From NCBI RefSeq assembly GCF_988242995.1, contig NZ_OZ547043.1: 64,000 nucleotides of DNA. One strand, written 5' to 3'. Positions 12,001 through 61,049 of the stretch are shown piece after piece (position 1 is the first letter of the stretch; each line of letters starts with the position of its first letter). A model generated the notes under the pieces. The model ran no database searches. It was not told the DNA's origin and was given only the letters and a program-made list of their open reading frames with translations. A program made the position numbers and the translations under genes.

Positions 12001-13290
12001 ATACGGATGCACGACGAGCGGACGCACCACTACCATTACGACAGCCAGCACCGCCTGGTGTTCTACACGCGGATACAGCACGGCGAGCCACAGGTGGAGA
12101 GCCGCTACCTCTATGACCCGCTGGGCCGCCGGACGGGGAAACGGGTGTGGCGGCGGGAGCGTGACCTGACGGGGTGGATGTCGCTGTCGCGTAAACCGGA
12201 GGAGACCTGGTACGGGTGGGACGGTGACAGGCTGACGACGGTACAGACCGGCACCACGCGTATCCAGACGGTATACCAGCCGGGGAGCTTCACGCCGCTC
12301 ATCAGAATCGAAACAGAGAATGGTGAACAGGCGAAGGCGCGGCACCGGAGTCTGGCGGAGGTGTTGCAGGAGGACACGGGGGTGACGCTACCGGCGGAGC
12401 TGTCGGTGATGCTGGGGAGGCTGGAGCGGGAACTGCGCGCGGGTGCGGTGAGTGCGGAGAGTGAGGCATGGCTTCAGCAGTGCGGGCTGACGGCGGAACA
12501 GATGAAAAACCAGATGGAGGCGGAATACATCCCGGAGAGGACACTTCATCTTTACCACTGCGACCACCGGGGGCTGCCGCAGGCGCTCATCAGCCCGGAA
12601 GGGGAAACGGCGTGGCAGGGGGAGTATGACGAGTGGGGAAACCTGCTGGGCGAAACCAGCGCGCAGCAACTGCAACAGCCGTACCGTCTGCCGGGGCAGC
12701 AGTATGATGAGGAGTCGGGGCTGTACTATAACCGCAACCGGTACTATGACCCGTTGCAGGGGCGGTATATCACCCAGGATCCCATTGGGCTAAGAGGTGC
12801 ATGGAACCTGTATCAGTATCCATTGAATCCAACTACTAAGATAGATCCGTTGGGTCTCTCCGGAGAAGATTCCATAGAGCAGTCAGGTCCATCTTGGTTG
12901 ATTGCTGACCCCATGGATAAATACAGACAACAGGCAGTGATGGGTTTAACAAAATTGTGGGATGATACCTTTAGTCAAGAGAAGACTAAATGTTTACCTA
13001 CGACACCTGAAAACATCAGGATGGTTGTGGCCAACAGTCCCTTGTTGACAGTACAACAAAAAGTCTCAGTACCCGTAGTAGCTCACTACGTACAAATGCT
13101 GGAAGATGGTAGTGGAGCACCACCGGTTGATATGGATGGGAATGTGATTGTTAATGGTAATCACAGGATGGTTGCGGGTCTGTTATGTGATAAACTTCCT
13201 CCTGAGCGGCCAGGTACGCGTCCATTATCGGCACCACTATATCCGTTTAGCCAAATTTTTCCGGAGTTAGATGATTGGGGGAATAGATGA
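9079..13290 (+). CDS. rhsE: Rhs-family protein: YD-repeat core with a variable C-terminal toxin domain
   Basis: 1403-aa ORF starting [13 protein letters not shown]…; many YD/RHS repeats (…[12 protein letters not shown]…, …YEYDRYGQ…); core ends with the canonical …[31 protein letters not shown] (DPLGL at 12844-12858), followed by ~143 aa of unrelated AT-rich sequence; RBS aagga upstream. Confidence 0.9.
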
Positions 13291-13772
13291 TAAGAATCGC
13301 GTTTTTAATAACCAATAAATTTCTTGATATAGATAGTACCACTCTTGCTGGATATGATTTTAGCGGGATGGATCTACATCGTGCCATCCTCAATGGTTAT
13401 TGTCTTGATGGGGCGAAATTTGAAAATTCCCATTTAAGAAATGTAATGATTCAACATACATCAACTAGAAATGCTGTCTTTCGCAATGCGGCTCTGATGA
13501 ACGCTATTCTTAATAACTCAGATTTCACTGGAAGTGACTTTAGTAATTCAAGGTCAATAGGTGCAAACTTTGAGGGTGCTATATTAACTAATTCAACCTT
13601 TTGCAATGCAGACGTTAAAGATTCAAATTTTTCTGGTGCTGACTTATGTGGCGCTAATTTATTATGTGATAGATATGGCGATATAAATATAACAGGTGCA
13701 TTATTCGATAAAAACACCTCATGGTTAGAAGGTTTTGATCCTATAGCTCATGGGGCTATATTAAAAATATGA
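13287..13772 (+). CDS. ydcD: Pentapeptide-repeat protein, probable Rhs immunity protein
   Basis: 161-aa ORF whose ATG overlaps the rhsE stop (ATGA at 13287-13290); tandem A(D/N)LXX-type repeats (…[64 protein letters not shown]…); AT-rich like the rhsE tip. Confidence 0.75.
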
Positions 13773-14100
13773 CAAGGATCATAACTCATTATTTTCTGTG
13801 TCAGTAACACTGATGTGGAAAGTAGACTTACTTGCAATAGCCACCGGGATCTGCTGTTGAAAGCCGATCCCAAACAACCCCGGTTGCTGTGGTAAAGAGT
13901 CATAGTAGCGAGCGCAGGGGGAGTGCTCAGATTATATGAGATACAGTGAAATGAATAAACCCGAACCTGTGTTGACGTGTCGTTAGTCCTAAGCGGCATC
14001 AGAACCGGAGGTTTCGTGATACCGCCGTGATAAATTTACGGGTGAATTCCGAATGCTACGTAAAGGGTGTCCGGCGTATAGCAGACATCAGGATAAAAGT

Positions 14101-15494
14101 ATGAAAGCCCACGCCCCACAAGGCTTTACCGGATGATGAGTTTTTAAACTACGACATTACTTTTACAGTAAAATCCATCATGTTGGTATTTTCTCTCGAA
14201 CAATTTGACGATCCACGGAAAGATCACGTAACGCTGCTTTTTTGTACTAGACAATTCGCATTTTATGTTTAACAATTGAGATATTCCTCATTACCTGAAG
14301 CTGTTTTTTATTGCGTATACATGATCAAATACTCCTTACATAATTAAGGAGAACAAAATGGAACTTAAAAAATTGATGGAACATATTTCTATTATCCCCG
14401 ATTACAGACAAGCCTGGAAAGTGGAACATAAATTTTCGGATATTCTACTGTTGACTATTTGTGCCGTTATTTCGGGTGCAGAAGGCTGGGAAGATATAGA
14501 GGATTTTGGGGAAACACATCTCGATTTTTTGAAGCAATATGGTGATTTTGATAATGGTATTCCTGTTCACGATACCATTGCCAGAGTTGTATCCTGTATC
14601 AGTCCTGCAAAATTTCACGAGTGCTTTATTAACTGGATGCGTGACTGCCATTCTTCAGATGATAAAGACGTCATCGCAATTGATGGAAAAACACTCCGGC
14701 ATTCTTATGACAAGAGTCGCCGCAAGGGAGCGATTCATGTCATTAGTGCGTTCTCAACAATGCACAGTCTGGTTATCGGACAGATCAGGACGGATGAGAA
14801 ATCCAATGAGATTACAGCTATTCCAGAACTTCTTAACATGCTGGATATTAAAGGAAAAATCATCACAACTGATGCGATGGGTTGCCAGAAAGATATTGCA
14901 GAGAAGATACAAAAACAGGGCGGTGATTATTTATTCGCTGTAAAAGGAAACCAGGGGCGGCTAAATAAAGCCTTCGAGGAAAAATTTCCGCTGAAAGAAT
15001 TAAATAATCCAGAGCATGACAGTTACGCAATTAGTGAAAAGAGTCACGGCAGAGAAGAAATCCGTCTTCACATTGTTTGCGATGTCCCTGATGAACTTAT
15101 TGATTTCACGTTTGAATGGAAAGGTCTGAAGAAATTATGCGTGGCAGTCTCCTTTCGGTCAATAATAGCAGAACAAAAGAAAGAGCCAGAAATGACGGTC
15201 AGATATTATATCAGTTCTGCTGATTTAACCGCAGAGAAGTTCGCCACAGCAATCCGAAACCACTGGCACGTGGAGAATAAGCTGCACTGGCGTCTGGACG
15301 TGGTAATGAATGAAGACGACTGCAAAATAAGAAGAGGAAATGCAGCAGAATTATTTTCAGGGATACGGCACATGGCTATTAATATTTTAACGAATGATAA
15401 GATATTTAAGGCAGGGTTAAGACGTAAGATGCGAAAAGCAGCCATGGACAGAAACTACCTGGCGTCAGTCCTTGCTGGGTGCGGGCTTTCGTAA
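14101..15494 (+). mobile_element. H-repeat (ISAs1-family) element, copy 2, approximate boundaries
   Basis: Leader 14101-14215 matches the copy-1 leader (atgaaagccc(g/a)cgccccacaag…cgacattacttttа-like block …caatttgac); the 3' end gcgggctttcg at 15481-15491 is inverted relative to the 5' end; contains an intact transposase ORF. Confidence 0.5.
14358..15494 (+). CDS. ydcC: H-repeat-associated protein (ISAs1-family DDE transposase), intact
   Basis: 378-aa ORF; DDE-type transposase features; paralogous to the interrupted ORF at 7521..8657; RBS aaggag upstream. Confidence 0.85.
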
Positions 15495-15539
15495 TCTTGC
15501 CCTGCGCCAAAGATTCCATATAATAATATTAAGGTTGTT

Positions 15540-16175
15540 ATGAATAAAGGTAATAGATTACAACAGTTAGAAGATGCGTGTCGTGATATTATTAAAATTA
15601 ACATGTGGTATGAACTCCCCGATTATGTATTTTTTTCAATATCTGACACCATCGATGGGACGAGTGATGAATTTGCAATAAATGTGTATAAAAATATCGA
15701 TAAAAGTCTTCTTGAAATATTATTGCATCCATCTGTTTTACTGTCAGTTGTTGAGTCCTTACAAAGTAATACTATAGCTGAGTATATCGTGAAATTGTCT
15801 GGAATAGAGATGAATTATGACGACTTGCTAATATCGGATGTTAAGTCATGTCTTTTTATCAACTATGGATTCAATAACAGTGAATCGGTTGCGCTATTTA
15901 ATAAGATTTGCCGCGAATTAAAAGACATTGTAAAATCATCAAGAGTACATATAGATCATGAGAAAGATATTTTTGATGGCCTTAATCAAATCTTGGCTTT
16001 TTCCGATAATAATAAACGTGAGTATTTTTTATATATAAAGGCATATTGGCTCAGTTTATACTTTTGTGAAATTTCACAGAACGTGAGAGAAAGAGATAAG
16101 TTGTCATTTTATTATAATGAATTTTCTGTCCGATTTCCTAATGTTGTCCTATATCCGTCATGCTACAAATTGTAA
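15540..16175 (+). CDS. Hypothetical protein (AT-rich orphan ORF next to the Rhs/H-rpt region)
   Basis: 211-aa ORF with an ATG start and aagg 5 nt upstream; very AT-rich; no family recognisable by eye; lies immediately 3' of the H-rpt element. Confidence 0.5.
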   Translation: MNKGNRLQQLEDACRDIIKINMWYELPDYVFFSISDTIDGTSDEFAINVYKNIDKSLLEILLHPSVLLSVVESLQSNTIAEYIVKLSGIEMNYDDLLISDVKSCLFINYGFNNSESVALFNKICRELKDIVKSSRVHIDHEKDIFDGLNQILAFSDNNKREYFLYIKAYWLSLYFCEISQNVRERDKLSFYYNEFSVRFPNVVLYPSCYKL

Positions 16176-16566
16176 GGCTTGGCACCTGAAATTCATTGTT
16201 AATTCGAGACGCTTGATTGTCCACTATATCAAAACAGTCATACCTCGGAATTTCTCACATTAGTCCATACGGTATTCAATTTTCGCAACTGTGCCCTGAA
16301 ATAAAAAACTGCAAAACTGCTTTTTCTTGACCTGTCCCAATCACGCAAGACTACTTTTAGTAGAGACCTCCAGCCATATCGATTTTAGTGCCGCCCGCGC
16401 ATTTTATACAAAACAGGGCTTTATCAATGAAGCTATAATACGCAATTACTATGATGTTGGTGAGGATAAATTAATCTTCACTAAAAATATGCAATCGTGA
16501 GATAAAATATGCTTTTAACTCATATTGAAACATTGCTTACGCAACTTCGTTGCTGCATATGATTCT

Positions 16567-17136
16567 TTAGCCAGCGGTAATACGCTTGCCGCTGGTAACA
16601 AACGTGCCAGCACCTAAATGATGCAACGTATTGAGTTTGTCATCATCAAACTGCCAGCGGCCTTCGACAAATACTCGTGCGTCTGCCGCTGCTGATACTA
16701 CCTCGCCAAACAGTGTGTCGTATTTTTCTTGCGCAGAAGTCGCAGGTAGCAGGCGACACTCCATCCACGCCAGACATTTTTCCTCGACCAGCGGCAAACC
16801 AAGCACCGGGCCTCTCACTACCGGAATGCCGTAGCAATTAAATTTATCTTCTTCACGCCCCGACACACTTCCCACCGCCCACGTCCAGTTAGTTGCTGCA
16901 ACACCCGGGATAACGATGCCAAACTTACCATTACGTTCAATCAACTCCCTGGTCCATGTCGATTTATCTACCACAATCGCCACGCGTGGCGGTTCAAACT
17001 CCACCGGCATTGACCAGGCTGCTGCCATAATGTTACGCCGCTGGGATTGCTCATCGAAACTGGTGATCATGACAGTTGGGCCATGATTTAACAGACGGCT
17101 GGCATGGTGTAATTCGACGGGAATGAATTGGCTCAC
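16567..17136 (-). CDS. yddH: Flavin reductase-like domain protein
   Basis: 189-aa ORF; apparent GTG start with gagg RBS; flavin-reductase-like fold features (…PTVMITSFDEQSQRRNIMAAAWSMPVEFEPPRVAIVVDK…). Confidence 0.7.
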   Translation of the reverse strand: MSQFIPVELHHASRLLNHGPTVMITSFDEQSQRRNIMAAAWSMPVEFEPPRVAIVVDKSTWTRELIERNGKFGIVIPGVAATNWTWAVGSVSGREEDKFNCYGIPVVRGPVLGLPLVEEKCLAWMECRLLPATSAQEKYDTLFGEVVSAAADARVFVEGRWQFDDDKLNTLHHLGAGTFVTSGKRITAG

Positions 17137-32879: not shown

Positions 32880-35800
32880 ATGGACGTCAGTCGCAGACAA
32901 TTTTTTAAAATCTGCGCGGGCGGTATGGCTGGAACAACGGTAGCGGCATTGGGCTTTGCCCCGAAGCAAGCACTGGCTCAGGCGCGAAACTATAAATTAT
33001 TACGCGCGAAAGAGATCCGTAACACCTGCACATACTGTTCCGTAGGTTGCGGGCTATTGATGTATAGCCTGGGTGATGGCGCGAAAAACGCCAGAGAAGC
33101 GATTTATCACATTGAAGGTGACCCGGATCATCCGGTAAGCCGTGGTGCGCTGTGCCCGAAAGGGGCCGGTTTGCTGGATTACGTCAACAGCGAAAACCGT
33201 CTGCGCTACCCGGAATATCGTGCGCCAGGTTCTGACAAATGGCAGCGCATTAGCTGGGATGAAGCATTCTCCCGTATTGCGAAGCTGATGAAAGCTGACC
33301 GTGACGCTAACTTTATTGAAAAGAACGAGCAGGGCGTAACGGTAAACCGTTGGCTTTCTACCGGTATGCTGTGTGCCTCCGGTGCCAGCAACGAAACCGG
33401 GATGCTGACTCAAAAATTTGCCCGCTCCCTCGGGATGCTGGCGGTAGACAACCAGGCGCGCGTCTGACACGGACCAACGGTAGCAAGTCTTGCTCCAACA
33501 TTTGGTCGCGGTGCGATGACCAACCACTGGGTGGATATCAAAAACGCTAACGTCGTAATGGTAATGGGCGGTAACGCTGCTGAAGCGCATCCCGTCGGTT
33601 TCCGCTGGGCGATGGAAGCGAAAAACAACAACGATGCAACCTTGATCGTTGTCGATCCCCGTTTTACGCGTACCGCTTCTGTAGCGGATATTTACGCACC
33701 TATTCGTTCCGGTACGGACATTACGTTCCTGTCTGGCGTTTTGCGCTACCTGATCGAAAACAACAAAATCAATGCCGAATACGTTAAGCATTACACCAAT
33801 GCCAGCCTGCTGGTGCGTGATGATTTTGCTTTCGAAGACGGTCTGTTCAGCGGCTACGACGCTGAAAAACGCCAGTACGATAAATCGTCCTGGAACTATC
33901 AGTTCGATGAAAACGGCTATGCGAAACGCGATGAAACACTGACTCATCCGCGCTGTGTGTGGAACTTGCTGAAAGAGCACGTTTCCCGCTACACGCCGGA
34001 CGTCGTTGAAAACATCTGCGGTACGCCAAAAGCAGACTTCCTGAAAGTGTGTGAAGTGCTGGCCTCCACCAGCGCGCCGGATCGCACAACCACCTTCCTG
34101 TACGCGCTGGGCTGGACGCAGCACACCGTGGGTGCGCAGAACATCCGCACCATGGCGATGATCCAATTGCTGCTCGGTAACATGGGTATGGCTGGTGGCG
34201 GCGTGAACGCATTGCGTGGTCACTCCAACATTCAGGGCCTGACCGACTTAGGTCTGCTCTCAACCAGCCTGCCGGGTTATCTGACGCTGCCGTCAGAAAA
34301 ACAGGTTGATTTGCAGTCGTATCTGGAAGCGAATACGCCGAAAGCGACGCTGGCTGATCAGGTGAACTACTGGAGCAACTATCCGAAGTTCTTCGTTAGC
34401 CTGATGAAATCTTTCTACGGTGATGCTGCACAGAAAGAGAACAACTGGGGCTATGACTGGCTGCCGAAGTGGGACCAGACCTACGACGTCATCAAGTATT
34501 TCAACATGATGGATGAAGGCAAAGTCACCGGTTATTTCTGCCAGGGCTTTAACCCGGTTGCGTCCTTCCCGGACAAAAACAAAGTGGTGAGCTGCCTGAG
34601 CAAGCTGAAGTACATGGTGGTTATCGATCCGCTGGTGACTGAAACCTCTACCTTCTGGCAGAACCACGGCGAGTCGAACGATGTCGATCCGGCGTCCATT
34701 CAGACTGAAGTATTCCGTCTGCCTTCGACCTGCTTTGCTGAAGAAGATGGTTCTATTGCTAACTCCGGTCGCTGGTTGCAGTGGCACTGGAAAGGTCAGG
34801 ACGCGCCGGGCGAAGCGCGTAACGACGGCGAAATTCTGGCGGGTATCTACCATCATCTGCGCGAGCTGTACCAGGCCGAAGGTGGTAAAGGCGTAGAACC
34901 GCTGATGAAGATGAGCTGGAACTACAAGCAGCCGCACGAACCGCAATCTGACGAAGTAGCTAAAGAGAACAACGGCTACGCGCTGGAAGATCTCTATGAT
35001 GCCAATGGCGTGCTGATTGCGAAGAAAGGTCAGTTGCTGAGTAGCTTTGCGCATCTGCGTGATGACGGTACAACCGCATCTTCTTGCTGGATCTACACCG
35101 GTAGCTGGACAGAGCAGGGCAACCAGATGGCTAACCGCGATAACTCCGACCCGTCCGGTCTGGGGAATACGCTGGGATGGGCCTGGGCGTGGCCGCTCAA
35201 CCGTCGCGTACTCTACAACCGTGCTTCGGCGGATATCAACGGTAAACCGTGGGATCCGAAACGGATGCTGATCCAGTGGAACGGCAGCAAGTGGACGGGT
35301 AACGATATTCCGGACTTCGGCAATGCCGCGCCAGGTACACCAACCGGACCGTTTATCATGCAGCCGGAAGGGATGGGACGCCTGTTTGCCATCAACAAAA
35401 TGGCGGAAGGTCCGTTCCCGGAACACTACGAGCCAATCGAAACGCCGCTGGGCACTAACCCGCTGCATCCGAACGTGGTGTCTAACCCGGTTGTTCGTCT
35501 GTATGAACAAGACGCGCTGCGGATGGGTAAAAAAGAGCAGTTCCCGTATGTGGGTACGACCTATCGTCTGACCGAGCACTTCCACACCTGGACCAAGCAC
35601 GCGTTGCTCAACGCAATTGCTCAGCCGGAACAGTTTGTGGAAATCAGCGAAACGCTGGCGGCGGCGAAAGGCATTAATAATGGCGATCGTGTCACTGTCT
35701 CAAGCAAGCGTGGCTTTATCCGCGCGGTGGCGGTGGTAACGCGCCGTCTGAAACCGCTGAATGTAAACGGTCAGCAGGTTGAAACGGTGGGTATTCCAAT

Positions 35801-37488: not shown

Positions 37489-37525
37489 CTGAAAATGGCG
37501 CTTTAAGAAGCGCCATTTTTTTTAT
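37489..37525. terminator. Rho-independent terminator after fdnI, shared with convergent yddM
   Basis: Hairpin aaaatggcgc-tttaag-aagcgccatttt followed by a T-run (ttttttttatt). Confidence 0.65.
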
Positions 37526-37806
37526 TGCGTAACCAGACGGCGCAGTCGCGACACATCCACCGTTTTTTCTGCCTCTGCCAGACTCCAGGCGTTTTGCAGA
37601 TTCAGCCACATTTGCGGCGAACTGCCGATCACCACGGAAAGTTTAATCGCCATTTCTGGTGTCAAAGCTGCTTTTCCGGTCAGCAATCGGCTTGCCGTTG
37701 AGGGCGCAATTTCCATTGCTCTGGCAAACTCGCGCAGGCTGACATTAAGTTCGTCCAGTGATTCCTGAATAATGTCCCCCGGGCGGGGATGATTGGCCAT
37801 TTTCAT
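37522..37806 (-). CDS. yddM: HigA-like XRE-family helix-turn-helix protein (antitoxin-like, no adjacent toxin gene)
   Basis: ATG at 37804-37806 gives a 94-aa product [57 protein letters not shown]… with an HTH motif. Confidence 0.7.
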
Positions 37807-37951
37807 TAGTGTCTTTACTCTCAGTAGCGTTCCTTCTCTGGGAACACTATCATTATTGTTCCTTCCTACGCAACAATAATCCATTTAGCCATTTCGTGTT
37901 GGAGAGTGTGCGATGCTGCGACCCGAACATGGCAGTCGCAGCAAAGGATTC

Positions 37952-38962
37952 TTAGCGGCGGAAATCAATCACCATACGGCCACGGATTTTGCCTTCTTCC
38001 ATCTCAGTAAAGATGGTGTTGATGTCCGCTAACGGACGCAGGGCGACTTTCGGCACCACTTTGCCTTCGGCGGCAAACTGGAAGGCTTCGGTGAGATCCT
38101 GGCGCGTGCCGACCAGCGAACCGACCACTTCAATACCATCCAGCACAAGGCGTGGGATGTCCAGGCTCATAGACTCCGGCGGCAGACCGACAGCCACAAC
38201 ACGACCGCCTGCTCGTACAGCATCAACCGCCGAGTTAAACGCAGCTTTAGCTACCGCTGTCACCACCGCAGCGTGAGCGCCACCGGTTTTTTCCTGCACA
38301 ATTTTGGCGGCGTCTTCAGTGCGTGAGTTAATCGCTAAAACAGCGCCCATTTCGGTTGCCAGTTTTAACTGCTCATCATTGACATCAATGGCGATCACTT
38401 TCGCGTTAAAGACATTCTTCGCGTATTGCAGGGCGAGGTTACCCAGACCGCCAAGACCGTAGATAGCAATCCACTGCCCTGGACGAATTTTTGACAGCTT
38501 AACGGCTTTGTAGGTGGTGACCCCCGCACAGGTAATGCTGCTGGCCGCCGCCGAGTCCAGAGCATCTGGCACTTTTACCGCGTAATCGGCGACCACGATG
38601 CACTCTTCCGCCATCCCGCCATCAACGCTGTATCCGGCATTTTTAACAGAACGGCAGAGGGTTTCGTTACCACTATTACAGTATTCGCAATGACCGCATC
38701 CTTCGTAAAACCACGCCACGCTGGCACGATCGCCTGGTTTTAATGAGGTGACACCTGGGCCAACTTCTGCCACCACACCAATACCTTCATGGCCCAGAAT
38801 TACGCCGGTTTTGTCACCAAAATCGCCATTCTTAACATGAAGATCGGTATGACATACACCACAACACTCCATTTTTAGCAGGGCTTCGCCATGTTTCAGT
38901 GAGCGCAGTGTTTTATCCGTAACGTCAACATGATGATCCTTCGTAACAACTGCAGCCTTCAT
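37952..38962 (-). CDS. adhP: Zinc-dependent alcohol dehydrogenase (propanol-preferring)
   Basis: ATG at 38960-38962 gives [14 protein letters not shown]… (336 aa); zinc-ligand motif GHEGIGVV and structural-zinc cysteines ([10 protein letters not shown]…C); Rossmann GLGGLG. Confidence 0.9.
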
Positions 38963-39095
38963 AGTTCCTCCTTTTCGGATGATGTTCTGCATAGCAGGTG
39001 AGGCAAATGAGATTTATTCGCCACTACCCAGTATGGATGAGATCTGAAAAAGAGAGAGGAAAATTGCCCGGCAGCTTTCACCACCGGGCGCAGGC

Positions 39096-40793
39096 TTAGA
39101 TGGAGGTACGGCGGTAGTCGCGGTATTCGGCGTGCCAGAAATTATCATCAATGGCCTGTTGCAGAGCTTCGGCGGAGGTTTTCACCGCCACGCCTTGCTG
39201 CTGCGCCATTTTGCCAACCGCAAAGGCAATTGCGCGGGAGACTTTCTGAATATCTTTCAGTTCCGGTAGTACCAGACCTTCGCCGTTCAGGACCAGCGGC
39301 GAATACTGAGCAAGCGTTTCACTCGCCGACATCAGCATCTCATCGGTGATACGTGACGCGCCGGAAGCAATAACGCCCAGCCCGATGCCCGGGAAAATAA
39401 AGGCGTTGTTACACTGGGCGATAGGGTAGATTTTATCTTTCCATACCACTGGGTTAAACGGACTGCCAGTGGCGACCAGCGCGTTACCTTCGGTCCAGGC
39501 GATAATGTCCTGCGGTGTGGCTTCCACGCGTGACGTCGGGTTAGACAGCGGCATCACGATCGGACGCGGACAGTGTTTATGCATCTCACGGATGATCTCT
39601 TCCGTAAACAGCCCGGTCTGTCCTGAGACGCCAATCAGAATATCTGGTTTTACATTACGCACCACATCCAGCAGTGACAGCACATCGCTGTCGGTATCCC
39701 AGTCACTGAGGTTTTCGCGCTTCTGCACCAGTTTGGTCTGGAAAGGCAGCAGGTTCGGCATCTTGTCGGTCAGCAGGCCAAAGCGATCAACCATAAAGAC
39801 TTTCTGCCGCGCCGCTTCCTCGCTTAATCCTTCACGCTGAGTCTGGGCGATGATCATTTCGGCAATCCCGCACCCCGCAGAGCCTGCGCCGAGGAAGACA
39901 ATCTTTTTCTCGCTCAGTTGACCACCCGCCGCGCGGCTGGCTGCGATCAGTGTGCCGACCGTTACCGCCGCGGTGCCCTGAATGTCATCGTTAAAAGAAC
40001 AAATTTCATTGCGATAGCGGTTAAGTAACGGCATCGCATTTTTTTGTGCGAAGTCTTCAAACTGCAACAGTACGTCCGGCCAGCGTTGTTTCACAGCCTG
40101 GATAAATTCATCAACGAATTCATAGTATTCGTCGTCAGTGATACGCGGATTACGCCAGCCCATATACAGCGGATCGTTAAGCAGCTGTTGGTTGTTCGTC
40201 CCGACATCCAGCACCACCGGAAGGGTATACGCTGGGCTGATGCCGCCACAGGCAGTATAGAGTGACAGTTTACCGATAGGAATGCCCATCCCGCCGATGC
40301 CCTGGTCACCAAGCCCCAGAATACGTTCACCGTCAGTCACCACAATCACTTTAATATTATGGTTCGGCACGTTTTGCAGAATATCGTCCATATTGTGGCG
40401 GTTCTGGTAAGAGATAAACACGCCGCGTGAACGGCGGTAGATCTCAGAAAAACGCTCACAGGCTGCGCCGACGGTTGGGGTATAAATAACAGGCATCATC
40501 TCATCAAGATGATTGTTTACCAGACGGTAGAAGAGGGTTTCGTTAGTGTCCTGGATGTTACGCAGGTAAATGTGTTTGTCGATTTCGGTTTTGAATCCCT
40601 GATACTGGATCCATGCTCGTTCCGCTTGTTCTTCGATGGTTTCGACCACTTCCGGCAGTAACCCCAGCAGGTTGAAGTTACGGCGTTCTTCCATGCTGAA
40701 GGCACTGCCTTTATTCAACAACGGAAATTCCAGCAGTACAGGGCCAGCGTAAGGAATATAAAGCGAACGCTGTTTTTTTGTTTTTGGTTCCAT
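39096..40793 (-). CDS. maeA: NAD-dependent malic enzyme
   Basis: ATG at 40791-40793 gives [33 protein letters not shown]… (565 aa); malic-enzyme signature and NAD-binding GAGSAG motif. Confidence 0.9.
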
Positions 40794-40889
40794 GTCACTC
40801 ACTCTTTTTTGAATATCCATCCCTGGCACGCTTTTATCGTCTTTGCTTTACCGCCAGGGCGTCGGCCCCAAGTATAAAGCAGATAAAAA

Positions 40890-41598
40890 TAAATATCCTC
40901 CGGCATAGCCGGAGGTTTTTCAAATGCGCCTGTAAGGCTCTGTTACCAGCCGCGCCCTAACAGGCGCACACGATCTGACATTTGCATCCAACTTCGTTAC
41001 TTACGGCCCGTAAACGGGCTGCCCGGATAGGGAATCGATAACTGCTCTCCCATTTTATCCTCTTCAAGCTGGTGCTTTATGTAGTCCTGTATCTTCGCCG
41101 TGTTCTTACCCACCGTATCGACATAGTACCCTCGGCACCAGAACTCCCTGTTTCTGTATTTGAATTTCAAATCCCCAAACTGCTCGTAAAGCATCAGACT
41201 GCTTTTCCCTTTCAGATATCCCATAAAGCCGGATACGCTCATTTTGGGTGGGATTTCCACAAGCATATGGATATGATCTGCGCAGCACTCTGCTTCCAGA
41301 ATCCGTACGCTTTTCCACTCACACAGCTTTCTCAAAATACTGCCTATCGCCCTACGCTTCTCTCCGTAAAACGCCAGTCTTCGGTATTTCGGCGCAAAAA
41401 CTATGTGATATTTACAGTTCCAGCGGGTGTGCGCTAAGCTCTTTTCGTCCCCCATTGGGACCCCCTTTTGATTTCTTGTTTGACACTTGCAGTTGCCAGA
41501 CCGCAAGGTGTTTTAACAAATCAAAAGGGGTTTTAATAACTGGCTCAAAGCTGAAAGCTTTCCGGAACCCCCAGCCTAGCTGGGGGTTTTCTGTGCAC
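40890..41598 (-). mobile_element. IS200-family (IS200/IS605) insertion sequence, about 0.71 kb
   Basis: Single Y1 (HUH) transposase ORF flanked by subterminal GC-rich hairpins: cccccagc-cta-gctggggg (41566-41584) and cctccggc-ata-gccggagg (40897-40915), plus a long RBS-sequestering stem (cccccttttgattt…aaatcaaaaggggg) just upstream of tnpA. Boundaries are approximate. Confidence 0.65.
40997..41455 (-). CDS. tnpA: IS200-type transposase TnpA (Y1 HUH family)
   Basis: ATG at 41453-41455 gives a 152-aa product MGDEKSLAHTRWNCKYHIVFAPKYRR…ADHIHMLVEIPPK…; HUH motif (HIH) and catalytic Tyr region (…YIKHQ…). Confidence 0.8.
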   Translation of the reverse strand: MGDEKSLAHTRWNCKYHIVFAPKYRRLAFYGEKRRAIGSILRKLCEWKSVRILEAECCADHIHMLVEIPPKMSVSGFMGYLKGKSSLMLYEQFGDLKFKYRNREFWCRGYYVDTVGKNTAKIQDYIKHQLEEDKMGEQLSIPYPGSPFTGRK

Positions 41599-41602
41599 AA
41601 CA

Positions 41603-41635
41603 AAAACACCATTGCGCAGGCAATGGTGTTTAATC
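41603..41635 (-). terminator. Rho-independent terminator of sra, adjacent to the IS200 end
   Basis: On the minus strand: hairpin caccattgc-ctgc-gcaatggtg followed by tttttgttg, starting about 25 nt after the sra stop. Confidence 0.55.
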
Positions 41636-53350: not shown

Positions 53351-54670
53351 TTAACTGCCCCAACGACTTTGCAGATAGCTGACCGCTTGTTGAGTCTGTG
53401 GCTTATTCAGATAGTCCTCACGGAACAAGATTGTGCCGCTAATTTCTGGCACGGCATCGTTAAGATCGAGCTGCTTTTTCAGTTCCGGTACGCCGCCGTT
53501 AATCATCCAGTCTGGCTCTATCTTTGAAGGTTCACCCACTTTATAGAAGGCGATACCGATATACAGGCGGGTCCTGGTCGGTTTAACGACATCTGCCCAC
53601 CATTTTGCCAAAACGTCATAACGTGCGGCACTCCGTGAGAACGGCCAGTAAATTTGGGGAGCAATGTAATCCAGCAATCCTTGTTCCACCCATCGACGGG
53701 TGTCAGCGTAGGATTCGTCATAGGCTGCCGCGCCTCGGGTATCGGAACCGAGCGGATCGTGTGATCGGTTACGCCACACGCCTGCCGGGCTAACGCCAAA
53801 TTCGACTTCCGGCTTAATGCTTTTAATGGTGTGCGATACCTTCGCAATTAACTGCTGAGTATTGTTGCGCCGCCAGTCTGCTTTTGACGCAAATGCGCCT
53901 CCGTATTTGCGGTACGTTTCGTTATCATTTAGCCGTGAACCCGGTGACTCAGTATAGAAATAGTCGTCAAACTGCACGCCATCTACCGGATAGCGGGAAA
54001 CCACTTCCGCGACTATTGATGTGATCCAGTCCTGAACTTCAGGGATGCCCGGGTCGAGGACAAAGCGATCGCCGGACGTTCTGATCCAGTCGCGGTGTTG
54101 CACATAGACGCTCGCTGGTTGTTGAGCCAGAGTGCTATTCAGTTCCCTGATAGTACCGGGCTTCGTATTAACCGATACGCGATAGGGGTTAAACCAGGCG
54201 TGTACTTTCATCCCACGCTTGTGGGCTTCGTCGAGCATAAATTGCAGCGGATCGTAACCTGGATTTTCACCAATCTTTCCGGTCATAAGATCGGACCACG
54301 GCAAAATTTTTGATGGCCACAGGGCGGTACCGTCCGGCTTGACCTGGAAAAAGACCGTGTTGATGCCGAGACGTTGCAGATGATCCAGTTTGTCGACCAT
54401 CGCCTGTTGTTGTACACGGGCCCGGCTGGTGGGGTTACTAATGTTAACCGAGGAAACCGGTGGCCAGTCGAGGCGAGACACTGTGGCCAGCCAGATGCCA
54501 CGCATCGGTTGTGACGATTGTTGCGTCGTAGCTGGTGGCTTCGAACCTGTTGGTGGTGTCACCATTGACTCTGGAGGCGTGCTTTTGCAACTACACAGTA
54601 AAAGTGCCAGTGCAACCAGTACCGCTGGTCTTCTAATCGCTAATTTCTCGTTTCGGGAGCAGATATCCAT
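53351..54670 (-). CDS. yddW: Lipoprotein, glycoside-hydrolase-like
   Basis: 439-aa ORF with a lipoprotein signal (…LALLLCSCKS…). Confidence 0.8.
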   Translation of the reverse strand: MDICSRNEKLAIRRPAVLVALALLLCSCKSTPPESMVTPPTGSKPPATTQQSSQPMRGIWLATVSRLDWPPVSSVNISNPTSRARVQQQAMVDKLDHLQRLGINTVFFQVKPDGTALWPSKILPWSDLMTGKIGENPGYDPLQFMLDEAHKRGMKVHAWFNPYRVSVNTKPGTIRELNSTLAQQPASVYVQHRDWIRTSGDRFVLDPGIPEVQDWITSIVAEVVSRYPVDGVQFDDYFYTESPGSRLNDNETYRKYGGAFASKADWRRNNTQQLIAKVSHTIKSIKPEVEFGVSPAGVWRNRSHDPLGSDTRGAAAYDESYADTRRWVEQGLLDYIAPQIYWPFSRSAARYDVLAKWWADVVKPTRTRLYIGIAFYKVGEPSKIEPDWMINGGVPELKKQLDLNDAVPEISGTILFREDYLNKPQTQQAVSYLQSRWGS

Positions 54671-54800: not shown

Positions 54801-56336
54801 TTAGTGTTTCTTGTCATTCATCACAATATAGTGTGGTGAACGTGCACGCGGGTGCAGGAAGAAGTGACCTTTTGGTGCGTTCTGACTGTTGATTGGCTCC
54901 AGAGTGACGCCGGTATTCCCTTTGCCTTTACGATCATGAACAGCATAGAGAATAAAGGGCAGGGCAAGTACCACCAGGAAACTCACGACCAGTAATTCAA
55001 CATACATATCGGTAGAGTCACCCTGGATGTTATCCGGCGGCAGGAAGGAAACAATAAACGCCATAATTGAAGTCAGCAGACCGACAACAGCCACGACCAG
55101 TTTCACCCCTTTACCACCAGGGATATTAAATGTGCGTTTTAAGTCAGGATGTTTAAGAACCAACACAATGTAGCCAATAAACAGCATGAAATAAGCACAC
55201 AGATAAATCACCACCGTCAGCGCCAGTGCGATCAGGAAGGACATGTTGTTACCGCCACCGGTATTGGTGAGGATGATCAACGCGATAGAAGTAATCACCA
55301 ACTGCGAAATGACCAGCGTTACCGGTACGCCATTTTTGTTCATTTTAGCGAATGCTGCTGGCAGCAGGTTTTTCTGCGCTGTGACATACATCCCGCGAGA
55401 AGGACCAACAATCCAGGAGGCGATTTCCGCCAGAACACCCAGCAACAGCAGTGCGGAGATCACGCGAACCGTCCACTCAATTTCCGGTGCCACATGGGAC
55501 ATCAGAACGGTAAAGGTTTGCATTACCCCTGCGGAGAGGTTGATTTCATTACCCGGAATGACCATCGCAATAGACAAACCGCCAACAGAGCTTAAGCAGA
55601 TTGCCGCCACCATCAGCAGTAACATAGCCAGTGGATAGTCGCGCCCTGGATTGCTCATTTCATTGACGTGGGTTGCGGAAGCTTCAACGCCCATATAACT
55701 CAAAATGAAGGCAACAAATACAACCAGGGTGCCCACTTTAGAGAAGTCAGGGAAGAAGGTCTTCGAATCCATTTCGATAGCAACGGGGGCACCGGAGTGC
55801 AGATAAATAGCCGCTAATGCGATCAAAATAAATGCAGGTAACAGGATACCGGCGAAGAAGCCAACTTTAGCAATTCGCGCCGTGTATTTCGTGCCACCAA
55901 ACTGCGTTAATGCCAGCGCCCAAAGAATGATGAGTGCTGCAATAGTTTTGGTAATAGGGTCTTCATTCAGCGCTGGCCATTTCAGGATGTAGGAGAGTGC
56001 CCCTAACACGAAATAGAGCATCGGAATAAAACCAATGGCGATTTGCAGATAGCCAAATGAGATCGCTGCAAATCCCCATCTCGGCCCCAGAGTATTTGAT
56101 ACCCAGGCGAAGACACCACCTTCTTCCCAGCCGTCGACGGTAGCCATTTCCGCAGCACAAAGTCCCACGGGAATAAACCATAAAATCCCGCCTAATAGCA
56201 GGAAGAAGACTAATGAAAAGCCCGATGTTGCGAAGGTAGGGTATTCATAAACAGCCATTACCATCGATGCCGTTATGGCAAAAAATCCGAGTAATGTGAG
56301 CTGCTTAGCTTTACCTGTCTGTACTGATGTAGCCAT
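54801..56336 (-). CDS. gadC: Glutamate:GABA antiporter
   Basis: 511-aa APC-family transporter; immediately downstream of the glutamate decarboxylase gene. Confidence 0.9.
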
Positions 56337-56491: not shown

Positions 56492-57892
56492 TCAGGTATG
56501 TTTAAAGCTGTTCTGCTGGGCAATACCCTGCAGTTTCGGGTGATCGCTGAGATATTTCAGGGAGGCTTTGTAGTCTTCCAGCAACAGTTCAGCAAAGTCC
56601 ATTTCGAAGCCGCGACGACACATAATGCGCATCACCACGATGTCGGTGGCTTCACCGCCGAGAGTGAAGGCCGGAACCTGCCAGCCGCGCAGACGCAGAC
56701 GTTCAGAGAGGTCGTAGAGGGTGTATCCCGGGTCTTCACCATCTTTCAGTTTGAAGCAAACCGCCGGGATGCCTTCGTCCGGGCGACCGGTACAGATGAA
56801 CTCATACGGCCCCAGTTTGGCGATTTCATCCGCCAGATAAGCGGCAACCTGGTAAGAGGCGTTCTGTACTTTGGTATAGCCTTCACGACCGAGGCGCAGG
56901 AATTCATAGTACTGTGCAATTACCTGACCCGCCGGGCGGGAGAAGTTGATGGCGAAAGTACCAATCTGACCACCGAGATAGTCAACGTTGAACACCAGTT
57001 CCTGCGGCAGCGCTTCTTCATCACGCCAGATAACCCAGCCGCAGCCCAGCGGAGCCAGACCGAATTTATGGCCTGAAGCACTGATCGATTTCACACGCGG
57101 CAGGCGGAAGTCCCAGACGATATCCGGGGCGACGAACGGTGCCAGGAAGCCACCGCTGGCGGCGTCGATGTGCATGTCGATGTCGATACCGGTGTCGGCC
57201 TGGAATTTATCCAGCGCATCGTGCAGCGGTTGCGGGAACTCATAGTTACCGGTGTAGGTCACGCCGAAAGTCGGCACCACGCCGATGGTGTTTTCGTCGC
57301 AGGCTTCAATCATGCGTTTCGGGTCCATAAACAACTGACCGGGGCGCATAGGGATCTCACGCAGCTCCACATCCCAGTAGCGGGCGAATTTATGCCAGCA
57401 GATTTGCACCGGACCGCACACCAGGTTTGGTTTATCCGTTGGTTTGCCTGCAGCTTCCATACGCTTGCGCCAACGCCATTTCATCGCCATCCCGCCGAGC
57501 ATACAGGCCTCGGAAGAACCAATGGTGTTGGTGCCAACGGCCTGACCATTTTTCGGCGCAGGCGCATGCCACAGATCGGCAACCATGTTTACGCAACGCA
57601 GGTCGATTGCTGCAGATTGCGGATATTCTTCTTTGTCGATCCAGTTTTTGTTAATGGATAAATCCATCAACTTATGGACATTTTCGTCGTCCCAGGTCTG
57701 GCAGAAAGTGGCCAGGTTCTGACGAGCGTTGCCATCAAGATATAATTCGTCATTGATAATCTGGAATGCGACATCATCGCGCATTTCGTGCAGCGGAAAT
57801 CGTTTTGATTCTGCGATAGTGGAAATAGACTTCGCACCAAAACGTGAATCGAGTAGTTCCGACCTTAAATCCGTTACTTGCTTCTTATCCAT
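56492..57892 (-). CDS. gadB: Glutamate decarboxylase (PLP-dependent)
   Basis: ATG at 57890-57892 gives [37 protein letters not shown]… (466 aa); PLP-lysine motif …[15 protein letters not shown]…; called gadB rather than gadA because gadC follows. Confidence 0.9.
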
Positions 57893-57971
57893 TTTAAACT
57901 CCTTAAAATGATTGGATCGCATTAAAAAAGTAGGATTTATCGATAAAGTAAGCAAGTGCAAAGGACTCTGG

Positions 57972-57991
57972 TTTAAATAACAAAATCCTAA
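57972..57991 (-). promoter_or_regulatory. GAD box (GadE binding site) in the gadB promoter
   Basis: The minus strand reads TTAGGATTTTGTTATTTAAA, the 20-bp GAD-box consensus, about 80 nt upstream of the gadB ATG. Confidence 0.7.
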
Positions 57992-58253
57992 TGTTATTTA
58001 TCGTGAAATATTACGAGAATAATGTTTTTTCATTAAAAAACAATACAATAGAGAATTGCTTGGTGGTAGTAAGGTGTTTTATGTTGTTATTTTTATGCGC
58101 TTTCTATGTCTCCTGAATTATCGCGTAAAAATCAGACATTAAAATATCATTATTAGCACTCGACTATTATTTTGAACGCATTTATAAAATTATTACATAA
58201 AAATGTCGAATATTGCTAAAATCCCCGCCAACGAGGTGTTGACGGGGCTGTTA

Positions 58254-61049
58254 TTATTTTGGCAATAATACTCCGGTATAGGTATTCACCGGATGAGAAA
58301 GATATTGTTTAACGGCAGTGTTAACATTCTCTACCGTCATTTGTTTCAATAATTGCTCCTGCTCAGTCCATGCTGCAGGATCGTCATATTGAATAAGACT
58401 ATTTACAATGGTGTTCGCTAATTGTTGAACGCTACGCTGTTGGATATCGAGGCTGCGCTGAACGTTTTGCTGGTATTCGTTCAGTTCTTGCTCACTGATC
58501 CCTTTAGCCAGACGCTTAACCATCACTTCATTCGCTAACGTTAACAGTTCATCATGTCGTTCTGGTTGACAAGTAAAAGCCAGCAAATGACTGATATCTT
58601 TGGCCTGAGGATCAACCGAGAGGCGAGAAGAAACGCTGTATGCCCCAGAGGCCTGTTCACGAATATTAACGCGTAGATCTTTTGCCAGTGCGACGTTAAA
58701 AGCATCGAGCGCCATACGCGTCTCCAGATTTACAGGTGTCCGGGAATCATAACGCTTCCACTGTGAAACCTGTGCCACAGGTTCATTTTGTTCTTTTACA
58801 GTAACCGATGCGTTGTCCGTCGCGCGAGTTAATGGTTTACCTGCGGCTAATGGCGAATCAGAGTGTTTGATTGATCCTAAGTAACGCGTAATTAACGGCA
58901 GGAGTTTGTCTTCTGCGACATTACCGACAATGACAAACGTGATATCCGCTGGAGATGAAAACAACTGGCGATCGGCAGCCAGCGCATCTGCGGCAGTAAA
59001 CTGTGCAATCTGATTTTCTTGCAGTAATTTCGTGCGGTCATCAGCATAGCGCGTCTCATACATCTGCTGGGCGAATTTCTCCGCTGGACGCTGGTCGAGC
59101 GTTTTCAACGCCTGAATTTGAGCATTTTGTAGCGATGCCCAAATATTATCATTAATCGTGCTGTGAGTGATTCGCTGGTTAATCAACTGGAAACCAGGTT
59201 CAGGGTTATTAGTCCGCGCGCTAACAGAGAGCAATGTATTCATGCCACTGACTTTACTGCTCATGGTTACCGAGTTTTCCGCACTCCAGCGTTTCAGGCT
59301 GGAAGAGGAGAGTTCACCAACGCCGCTTCCGCTTACTGCTTTATTTGCCAGCGCGATAAGTGATTTTTGCTGCGCAGGGAAACTTAAATCGCCTTTATTA
59401 GATACGGCAGTAATTTGTAGCTTTTGCTCTTCACCCGCGGATTTTGCCAGAATAACCCTGGCACCATTGGAAAGTGTTAATGATGTCAGATTCTCAGCCA
59501 GCGTTTCTTTGCTGCTAATTTCCGCCTGTGGGTCAACGTCTACTGTTAACGATAAATTTCTGCCTGGGAAGATGTAAGCCGCCAGCTTTTTGTTGGCGTA
59601 CTCTTTTTCCAGCGCCAGGATAGCCGCAGGAGACAATGCTTTTTTGGCGGCAACCTCATTGTTTACCATTTGCTCCCAAAATGCGTCCTGGTTCTTTCTT
59701 AACTGCTGCCATTTTTCCGCCAGACTTTGCACGGTAATTTGCTGCCACAGACGTTTCGAAAGTTGATATGTCTCTTCCGGCGACAAGAACGGCGTATTAT
59801 TTAATGAGCTGGATGCCAGGCGACTGGTCAGCATACGTAAATCACGTTCAGCTTGCTGATCAACCGCATTTTTCAGCCAGGTGAGACGGGTAGATTTGAC
59901 ATCATCGAGTTCTTCAGCAGAAAAACCATGCTGATCAATAGTTGCCAACTCTGCCATTAATGCATTCGCAGCATCCTGCATATTATCGTCTCGTGCATTT
60001 ACACGGAAAAACAGCGATTGATAATCGGGTGCAATTCTAACGCTGCGCGCAGTGCCGCCAGAAATAGTCTTCAACTCGCCCGACTGTATACGTTCCTGCA
60101 GACGTTGATTGAACAGCTGAACTAACATGCTCCATTCAGCTTGTTCGATAAAGCTTTGCTCATCGCTCACTTGCACCATTGGCAGGCGATAATAGAGTGC
60201 GATGCCGTTCACCCGGTTTTCTTTATCATTAATGATATTAAAGCGCAGGTGGTTTTCGGCTTTTGTCGGCCAGACGCGATTTTCAGCTGCTTTGTTAGCC
60301 GGAAGCTTACTTAAATTGTCCTTTATCAGCGCCAGCGCTTCTTTACTGTCGATATCGCCGACCACGATAAAGGTCATATTATTTGGTTGATACCAGCGTT
60401 GATAAAATTGGCGCAATTGTGCCGGTGTGACCGTGGCGACAGTATCCATCAGGCCGATAGGTTCACGGTCTAAATTACGGGTATTTGCCAGCAGGAAAGG
60501 GCGGCGCGCCTGAGAGGTGCGCCATTTCACATCCTGATGGGCACGCCATTCCTCAGTAATTACGCCGCGTTCAGCGTCTACTTCGAGTTTATCAAAGGTC
60601 GCGGCATTACCCCATTCACTGAATATTGCCATCACTTGTTGCAGATTTTGTTTCTGCGTAGTCGGCAAACTTACCTGATACACCGTTTCGTCATAGCTGG
60701 TATAGGCATTAACATCGCGACCAAAGCGCAGACCCATCGACTCAAATGTTTCGATGACTTTATTACCCGGCCATGTTTTTGTGCCGTTAAACATCATATG
60801 TTCTACAAAATGAGCCACGCCGCGCTCATTGTCCTCTTCCTGCAATGAACCGGTATGAATTTGCAGCCATAAATTTACCTGATCCTTTGGTTGAGCATGC
60901 GGATAAATCATATATCGCAAGCCATTGTCCAGTTGCCCGGTAATTAACTTTTCATCCTGCGGTAAGGCGGCGGCAATCAGTCGCCCGGGGAGCAACAGAG
61001 TTACCACTAACGTCAGTAAGAAACAGAGGTTTCTCATAATTATCTCCAT
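58254..61049 (-). CDS. pqqL: Periplasmic M16-family zinc metallopeptidase
   Basis: ATG at 61047-61049 gives a 931-aa product with a signal peptide (…LLLPGRLIAAALP) and the inverted zinc-binding motif HFVEH; an alternative start at 61037 cannot be excluded. Confidence 0.85.
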   Translation of the reverse strand: MEIIMRNLCFLLTLVVTLLLPGRLIAAALPQDEKLITGQLDNGLRYMIYPHAQPKDQVNLWLQIHTGSLQEEDNERGVAHFVEHMMFNGTKTWPGNKVIETFESMGLRFGRDVNAYTSYDETVYQVSLPTTQKQNLQQVMAIFSEWGNAATFDKLEVDAERGVITEEWRAHQDVKWRTSQARRPFLLANTRNLDREPIGLMDTVATVTPAQLRQFYQRWYQPNNMTFIVVGDIDSKEALALIKDNLSKLPANKAAENRVWPTKAENHLRFNIINDKENRVNGIALYYRLPMVQVSDEQSFIEQAEWSMLVQLFNQRLQERIQSGELKTISGGTARSVRIAPDYQSLFFRVNARDDNMQDAANALMAELATIDQHGFSAEELDDVKSTRLTWLKNAVDQQAERDLRMLTSRLASSSLNNTPFLSPEETYQLSKRLWQQITVQSLAEKWQQLRKNQDAFWEQMVNNEVAAKKALSPAAILALEKEYANKKLAAYIFPGRNLSLTVDVDPQAEISSKETLAENLTSLTLSNGARVILAKSAGEEQKLQITAVSNKGDLSFPAQQKSLIALANKAVSGSGVGELSSSSLKRWSAENSVTMSSKVSGMNTLLSVSARTNNPEPGFQLINQRITHSTINDNIWASLQNAQIQALKTLDQRPAEKFAQQMYETRYADDRTKLLQENQIAQFTAADALAADRQLFSSPADITFVIVGNVAEDKLLPLITRYLGSIKHSDSPLAAGKPLTRATDNASVTVKEQNEPVAQVSQWKRYDSRTPVNLETRMALDAFNVALAKDLRVNIREQASGAYSVSSRLSVDPQAKDISHLLAFTCQPERHDELLTLANEVMVKRLAKGISEQELNEYQQNVQRSLDIQQRSVQQLANTIVNSLIQYDDPAAWTEQEQLLKQMTVENVNTAVKQYLSHPVNTYTGVLLPK

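Follow-up and report, generated by a model that had tools for sequence, protein, structure and literature searches.

The closest described systems are the gadA and gadBC promoters of Escherichia coli, both of which carry a GAD box of 20 bp whose centre lies 63 bp before the transcription start and which is situated 16 bp upstream of the -35 hexamer (PMC2887963). In the activation of both promoters the central role is played by GadE, a regulator of the LuxR family (PMC2887963), with an effect of more than 50-fold compared to less than 2-fold in case of GadX (PMC4918353). Purified GadE alone does not bind the box; binding is observed for the RcsB/GadE heterodimer with an apparent constant of approximately 10 nM, and the footprint of RcsB plus GadE extends from -50 to -76 and covers the box (PMC2887963). 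A G-to-C change in the conserved left half of the box abolishes both binding and GadE-dependent activation (PMC2887963). Furthermore, activated RcsB represses through a separate RcsB box at the -10 region, located directly upstream of the -10 hexamer, the gadB copy of which is conserved save for a C in place of a G at its left end (PMC2887963). Footprinting, EMSA, and mutagenesis were carried out on gadA, and the case for gadB was argued from the sequence identity of the two boxes (PMC2887963). H-NS represses gadA and gadBC (PMC2887963, PMC4918353), and according to a secondary statement GadX and GadW can act as competitors at the gad box in some conditions (PMC6128205). Induction by acid and in stationary phase acts via the abundance of GadE and via GadX/GadW, RpoS, and H-NS (PMC2887963, PMC4918353, PMC6128205).

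The window, i.e., the whole stretch of 64 kb analysed here, belongs to the E. coli chromosome and shows the annotated neighbourhood yddA-yddB-pqqL-gadB-gadC-digH-dosC-dosP, followed by ddp genes. An 801-bp query taken around the motif found a match in 5,425 of the 5,426 complete E. coli genomes, in two of them at 100% identity. In all of the best matches the underlying features are annotated as pqqL and gadB, and the genomes identical over all 801 bases have gadB annotated at this place, between pqqL and gadC. The two genes of the operon are located as follows.

56492..57892, minus strand: gadB, glutamate decarboxylase, 466 aa, with its ATG at 57892; the equivalog model TIGR01788 matched with 692.7 bits (cutoff 380.4)
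54801..56336, minus strand: gadC, the second operon gene, encoding a glutamate/GABA antiporter of 511 aa; the equivalog model TIGR00910 matched with 1027.3 bits (cutoff 673.5), in agreement with the RefSeq annotation

We assign the first gene to gadB and not to gadA because pqqL is situated upstream and gadC downstream, and because the N-terminus reads MDKKQV. The sequence-only reading had taken the GAD box as support for the gadB assignment. The box does mark a gad promoter, but it cannot tell gadB from gadA, due to the fact that all 20 of its positions are identical at gadA. Neither gadE nor rcsB occurs in the 64 kb window, as judged from the annotation of the syntenic region. Downstream of gadC, the digH (yddW) ORF occupies 53351-54670 on the minus strand; it is annotated in RefSeq as a family 10 glycosylhydrolase, and no NCBIfam model matched it at an E-value of at most 0.001.

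A pattern search placed the 20-mer TTAGGATTTTGTTATTTAAA exactly at 57991..57972 on the minus strand, with the coordinates and the strand that had been claimed for a GAD box, and PMC4918353 quotes the same 20 bases as a published GadE site. It lies upstream of the glutamate decarboxylase gene, which in turn is followed by the antiporter gene gadC. The box is orthologous to the characterised K-12 site, given the shared synteny yddA-yddB-pqqL-gadB-gadC-digH and an intergenic region that aligns collinearly with K-12 over its full length. With a probability of roughly 95%, the 20-mer serves the E. coli gadBC promoter as its GAD box, an activator site for RcsB/GadE with its centre about 63 bp ahead of the transcription start. 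Judged by its sequence, the element is already known, being none other than the GAD box of gadBC at the locus where K-12 carries it, and it shows all features that define the box at this level.

The promoter was read by alignment of the window with K-12 gadB (NC_000913 1571700-1572700) and K-12 gadA (3667200-3668200). The start site, the -35 hexamer, and the -10 hexamer were placed by the published geometry and by identity with K-12, which gives the following order from the box to the start codon of gadB.

57972..57991, minus strand: GAD box TTAGGATTTTGTTATTTAAA, exact and unique in the window, identical at 20 of 20 positions to K-12 gadB, K-12 gadA, and 8 other Escherichia gad promoters
57956..57971, minus strand: 16-bp spacer between box and -35 hexamer, starting with CCAGAG, from the alignment
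57950..57955, minus strand: putative -35 hexamer TTGCTT, agreeing with TTGACA at 3 of 6 positions and separated from the box by 16 bp
57931..57942, minus strand: RcsB box CGATAAATCCTA, identical to K-12 gadB, abutting and overlapping the -10 hexamer
57927..57932, minus strand: inferred -10 hexamer TACTTT, preceded by a C at -13, at 17-bp spacing from the -35 hexamer and invariant in 11 of 11 promoters
57919, minus strand: inferred transcription start, a C, from the published geometry and 7 nt after the -10 hexamer
57899..57904, minus strand: Shine-Dalgarno sequence AAGGAG of gadB, read from the sequence

Counted from the start site placed at 57919, the GAD box spans -72 to -53 with its centre at -62.5, and the leader comprises 27 nt. 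Between the box and the ATG at 57892 lie 79 nt, the same spacing as in K-12 gadB and K-12 gadA. The expected distance from the gadB start is hence borne out at three places, by 79 nt to the ATG, 16 bp to the -35 hexamer, and a centre at about -63, as published. The proposed comparison with the gadA promoter gave the same picture, with a box identical at 20 of 20 positions, the same 16-bp distance to the -35 hexamer, and 79 nt to the ATG.

Over the segment that runs from the box through the start codon, window and K-12 gadB agree at every base but two; these are adjacent, lie just 3' of the box at 57970 and 57969, and give CCAGAG in the window versus CACGAG in K-12. These bases correspond to about -51/-50 and are situated at the edge of the published -50 to -76 footprint. 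Further upstream of the box, scattered SNPs relative to K-12 gadB were observed.

The placement of the -35 hexamer agrees with the gadA geometry stated in PMC2887963, and its TTGC is invariant in the 11 promoters compared below. CGATAAATCCTA forms the 3' part of the 17-bp spacer between TTGCTT and TACTTT; the RcsB box in the form GAT(A/T)AATCCTAC is kept in 11 of 11 promoters, as is the Shine-Dalgarno region TAAGGAGTT. A consensus scan for sigma-70 promoters missed that of gadB and returned only an unrelated weak site at 58176..58149. The missed call fits a weak, activator-dependent core promoter rather than the absence of a promoter.

Further upstream, a stem-loop follows just past the pqqL stop codon (58254-58256).

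58223..58247, minus strand: stem-loop with a 10-bp stem and a 5-nt loop, followed by AUUUU

The RNA fold reaches -18.6 kcal/mol with a z-score of -4.7, and none of 200 shuffles folds as well. Most probably this is the terminator of pqqL, which would insulate the gadB promoter from upstream transcription. Because of its short T-run, the structure escaped a consensus terminator scan.

In the 64 kb window, TTAGGATTTTGTTATTTAAA is the single match on both strands, even if up to 3 mismatches are allowed, and dinucleotide-preserving shuffles contain on average 0.01 matches per window at this threshold. Beyond the window, an exact-match scan of about 298 Gb, with one genome per species for 100,044 species, returned 11 matches, of which 8 are Escherichia gad promoters, in E. 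albertii, E. whittamii, Escherichia sp. E1V33, and two divergent genomes labelled E. coli. None of these Escherichia matches has K-12-like upstream flanks, and for conservation within E. coli the collection of 5,426 complete genomes was used instead. The other three are located in MAGs of Lentisphaeria and Bacteroidales and have no gad context. Such matches in other phyla are what a functionless AT-rich 20-mer arising by chance would produce, and three is about the number that chance predicts for one AT-rich 20-mer in about 298 Gb. For the window itself, the expectation of 0.01 even with 3 mismatches, together with the orthologous position and the fixed spacing from the gad start codons in all Escherichia matches, speaks against chance, which we consider a practically negligible explanation here.

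Together with the window and the two K-12 copies, the 8 Escherichia matches form a set of 11 promoters that divides into 5 gadB-type and 6 gadA-type members. Each of the 11 has its ATG 79 or 80 nt away from the box. Since the set was assembled by exact matching, the box appears invariant in the comparison below partly by construction, which applies neither to the contrast with the flanks nor to the spacer between box and -35 hexamer of exactly 16 bp in all 11 promoters. An ungapped comparison of the segments, anchored on the box, gave the following values.

40 bp upstream of the box: 0 of 40 columns invariant, gadA-versus-gadB identity 27%, 11 versions
GAD box: 20 of 20 columns invariant, gadA-versus-gadB identity 100%, 1 version
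Spacer to the -35 hexamer: 1 of 16 columns invariant, gadA-versus-gadB identity 21%, 9 versions
-35 hexamer: 4 of 6 columns invariant, gadA-versus-gadB identity 83%, 4 versions
-10 hexamer: 6 of 6 columns invariant, gadA-versus-gadB identity 100%, 1 version

According to the alignments, the similarity of gadA and gadB upstream of the genes starts at the 5' edge of the box. This sharp boundary, as well as the near-identical coding regions of both genes, which fit ongoing gene conversion, could suggest that the 20-mer is conserved only as part of a duplicated or gene-converted segment and not as a protein-binding site. Against this, the 16-bp spacer inside the shared segment is only 21% identical and occurs in 9 versions next to a box that is kept at 20 of 20 positions in 11 promoters. 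Moreover, the published point mutation in the box abolishes RcsB/GadE binding and activation (PMC2887963). Gene conversion as the sole cause of the conservation is therefore extremely unlikely, and the reading as an activator site is retained. The possibility that the motif belongs to a different upstream element, raised beforehand as a point that could overturn the assignment, was followed up in the same alignments; the box appears as a discrete invariant block, and the assignment holds.

As a population figure, a 40-base blastn probe centred on the box is less biased than the set found by exact match. Of the 5,426 E. coli genomes, 5,425 gave matches to this probe, at 10,804 places altogether and at a median of two in each genome, compared to 10,852 gad loci for the 801-bp probe, which also detects gadA through the similarity of the coding sequences. 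Roughly 48 gad loci thus gave no match to the box probe. With the 40-base probe, the second place per genome is detectable only via a near-perfect 20-bp box, as in hit H55, which covers query positions 11-30 with 100% identity. Due to this requirement, both copies of the box must be essentially fixed in E. coli. The 40-mer allele of the window was found at an identity of at least 99% in only 155 of 5,431 records, and the two-base variant beside the box is thus a minority allele. Six of the approximately 10,800 gad promoter matches in the E. coli collection lie on records classed as plasmids.

Regulators other than RcsB/GadE were considered as the main readers of the box, i.e., the AraC-type regulators GadX/GadW or H-NS, the latter with the box as a nucleation tract. 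The A+T content of the box is 80%, GadX and GadW can compete for it in some conditions (PMC6128205), H-NS represses both promoters, and the total invariance over 20 bp exceeds that of a typical site of a single regulator, which hints at overlapping readers. The ChIP-exo GadX/W motif AKGKCTGWTWTTWWYMYVAK (PMC4918353) nevertheless has no match at the GAD box within 2 mismatches and instead matches about 140 bp further upstream.

58120..58139, minus strand: GadX/GadW-like motif ATGTCTGATTTTTACGCGAT, at about -201 to -220, with 1 mismatch to AKGKCTGWTWTTWWYMYVAK

This is the single match to AKGKCTGWTWTTWWYMYVAK in the window, with 0.28 expected per 64 kb, and likely represents a candidate site for an AraC-type activator upstream of the GAD box. 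Considering also the far stronger activation by GadE than by GadX (PMC4918353) and the RcsB plus GadE footprint that covers the box (PMC2887963), a box serving mainly GadX/GadW or H-NS is very unlikely, and RcsB/GadE remains the preferred reading. The ChIP-exo GadE motif TTARGAWWWWAAATA (PMC4918353) did not recover the gadB box within 2 mismatches and gave 3 matches elsewhere in the window, which is at chance level; it is not useful as a detector of the archetypal box.

For the mode of action, we rely on the literature with respect to the binding proteins and the mechanisms of activation and repression, and on the present analysis with respect to sequence identity, position, spacing, gene identity, and conservation versus diverged flanks. 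By analogy, a LuxR/FixJ-type RcsB/GadE heterodimer would bind the GAD box about 63 bp upstream of the start and 16 bp from a weak -35 hexamer, and would from there activate RNA polymerase at the gadBC promoter. The core, TTGCTT and TACTTT at a distance of 17 bp, is presumably too poor to fire well unaided, and expression of gadB and gadC would therefore follow the abundance of GadE, which itself would be set by acid, stationary phase, and other signals. The second RcsB site beside the -10 hexamer may allow repression once the Rcs system is activated. Seen from this side, two statements of the sequence-only reading need to be reworded. The box was described as GadE-dependent, which is right as far as dependence is concerned, but GadE alone does not bind, and it is the RcsB/GadE heterodimer that does (PMC2887963). 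It was also taken to indicate acid-inducible regulation of gadBC; the box accounts for dependence on GadE/RcsB, but the acid induction as such, according to the literature, arises upstream via the abundance of GadE.

It is tempting to speculate on two points beyond this, both of which we regard as rather unlikely. First, the 20-bp invariance could reflect several regulators (RcsB/GadE, GadX/GadW, and H-NS) reading the same bases; it holds in several Escherichia lineages and at the promoters of both paralogues, next to flanks of almost random identity, and exceeds the usual need of one heterodimer site. Second, the minority change of CA-to-AC type at -51/-50 might tune the output of gadBC in this lineage.

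Several observations concern other parts of the window. At 13840-13948 on the plus strand, the Rfam family group-II-D1D4-2 was matched with 48 bits (gathering score 36; E-value 1.2e-6), covering the whole 118-position model. The match sits between a pentapeptide-repeat ORF (13287-13772), which is preceded by an Rhs core ORF (9079-13290), and an ISAs1-type transposase ORF (14358-15494). No ORF of at least 90 aa is present between 13772 and 14358, and no reverse-transcriptase domain was found in the four ORFs scanned around the match; because of both, 13840-13948 looks like an intron fragment, inside an Rhs/H-repeat element. Positions 9000-14910 of the window match, at 99.2%, an RHS element with pentapeptide-repeat and ISAs1 genes in other strains. 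Positions 1-16566, especially 14910-16566, gave no alignment with a strain whose gadB promoter is identical to that of the window, none of the complete E. coli genomes covers at least 80% of 9000-16600, and the ORF at 15540-16175 (211 aa) has no Pfam match.

In case of 37515-41605, the surroundings of an IS200C copy and a RelE/HigA-type toxin-antitoxin pair are arranged differently from those in strain JNEC-KY178; BLAST gave overlapping pieces with a changed order and orientation. An Rfam STnc490 match with 146 bits is located at 41465-41588 on the minus strand. At 33462-33520 on the plus strand, a SECIS_3 selenocysteine insertion element (Rfam, 84 bits) was found at fdnG, encoding formate dehydrogenase-N alpha, as expected for a selenoprotein gene.

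Taken as a whole, the gadBC promoter annotation of this strain is anchored by the box, the -35 hexamer, the RcsB box, the -10 hexamer, and the leader, and the strain appears to retain the canonical wiring by which its main acid-resistance operon is regulated. This is the ordinary annotation of a textbook regulatory site and adds nothing new to biology. Mildly useful by-products are the quantified sharpness of the 20-bp conservation relative to the flanks and the minority two-base allele beside the box.

Compared with the known systems, the nearest relative is the gadBC GAD box of K-12 (Castanie-Cornet & Foster 2001; Castanie-Cornet et al. 2010, PMC2887963), which occurs at the same locus, pqqL-gadB-gadC. 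The 20-mer, the -35 hexamer, the RcsB box, the -10 hexamer, the leader, and the start codon are identical, with 79 nt from box to ATG in both, and the differences consist of CACGAG in K-12 versus CCAGAG in the window at +2/+3 after the box, and of the scattered SNPs further upstream. The gadA promoter resembles the gadB promoter of the window in all 20 positions of the box, in TTGCTT at 16 bp, in TACTTT, and in the 79 nt to the ATG. It differs in its chromosomal locus, the acid fitness island beside gadX, in an unrelated sequence upstream of the box, and in a 16-bp spacer that is only about 21% identical to that of gadB. Degenerate GadE sites of the type TTARGAWWWWAAATA (PMC4918353), which belong to other members of the regulon, have the left-half core TTAGGA and a run of A/T in common with the gadB box, whereas their right half is unlike it; the boxes of gadA and gadBC represent the full 20-bp archetype. 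What links the GAD box to the RcsAB/RcsB boxes of the Rcs regulon is its left half, which is similar to an RcsB half-site, together with the strict need for RcsB as a partner (PMC2887963). At the GAD box, however, RcsB pairs with GadE and not with RcsA or a second RcsB, and the GAD box is asymmetric. Unlike the GAD box, the separate RcsB-only box at the -10 region mediates repression.
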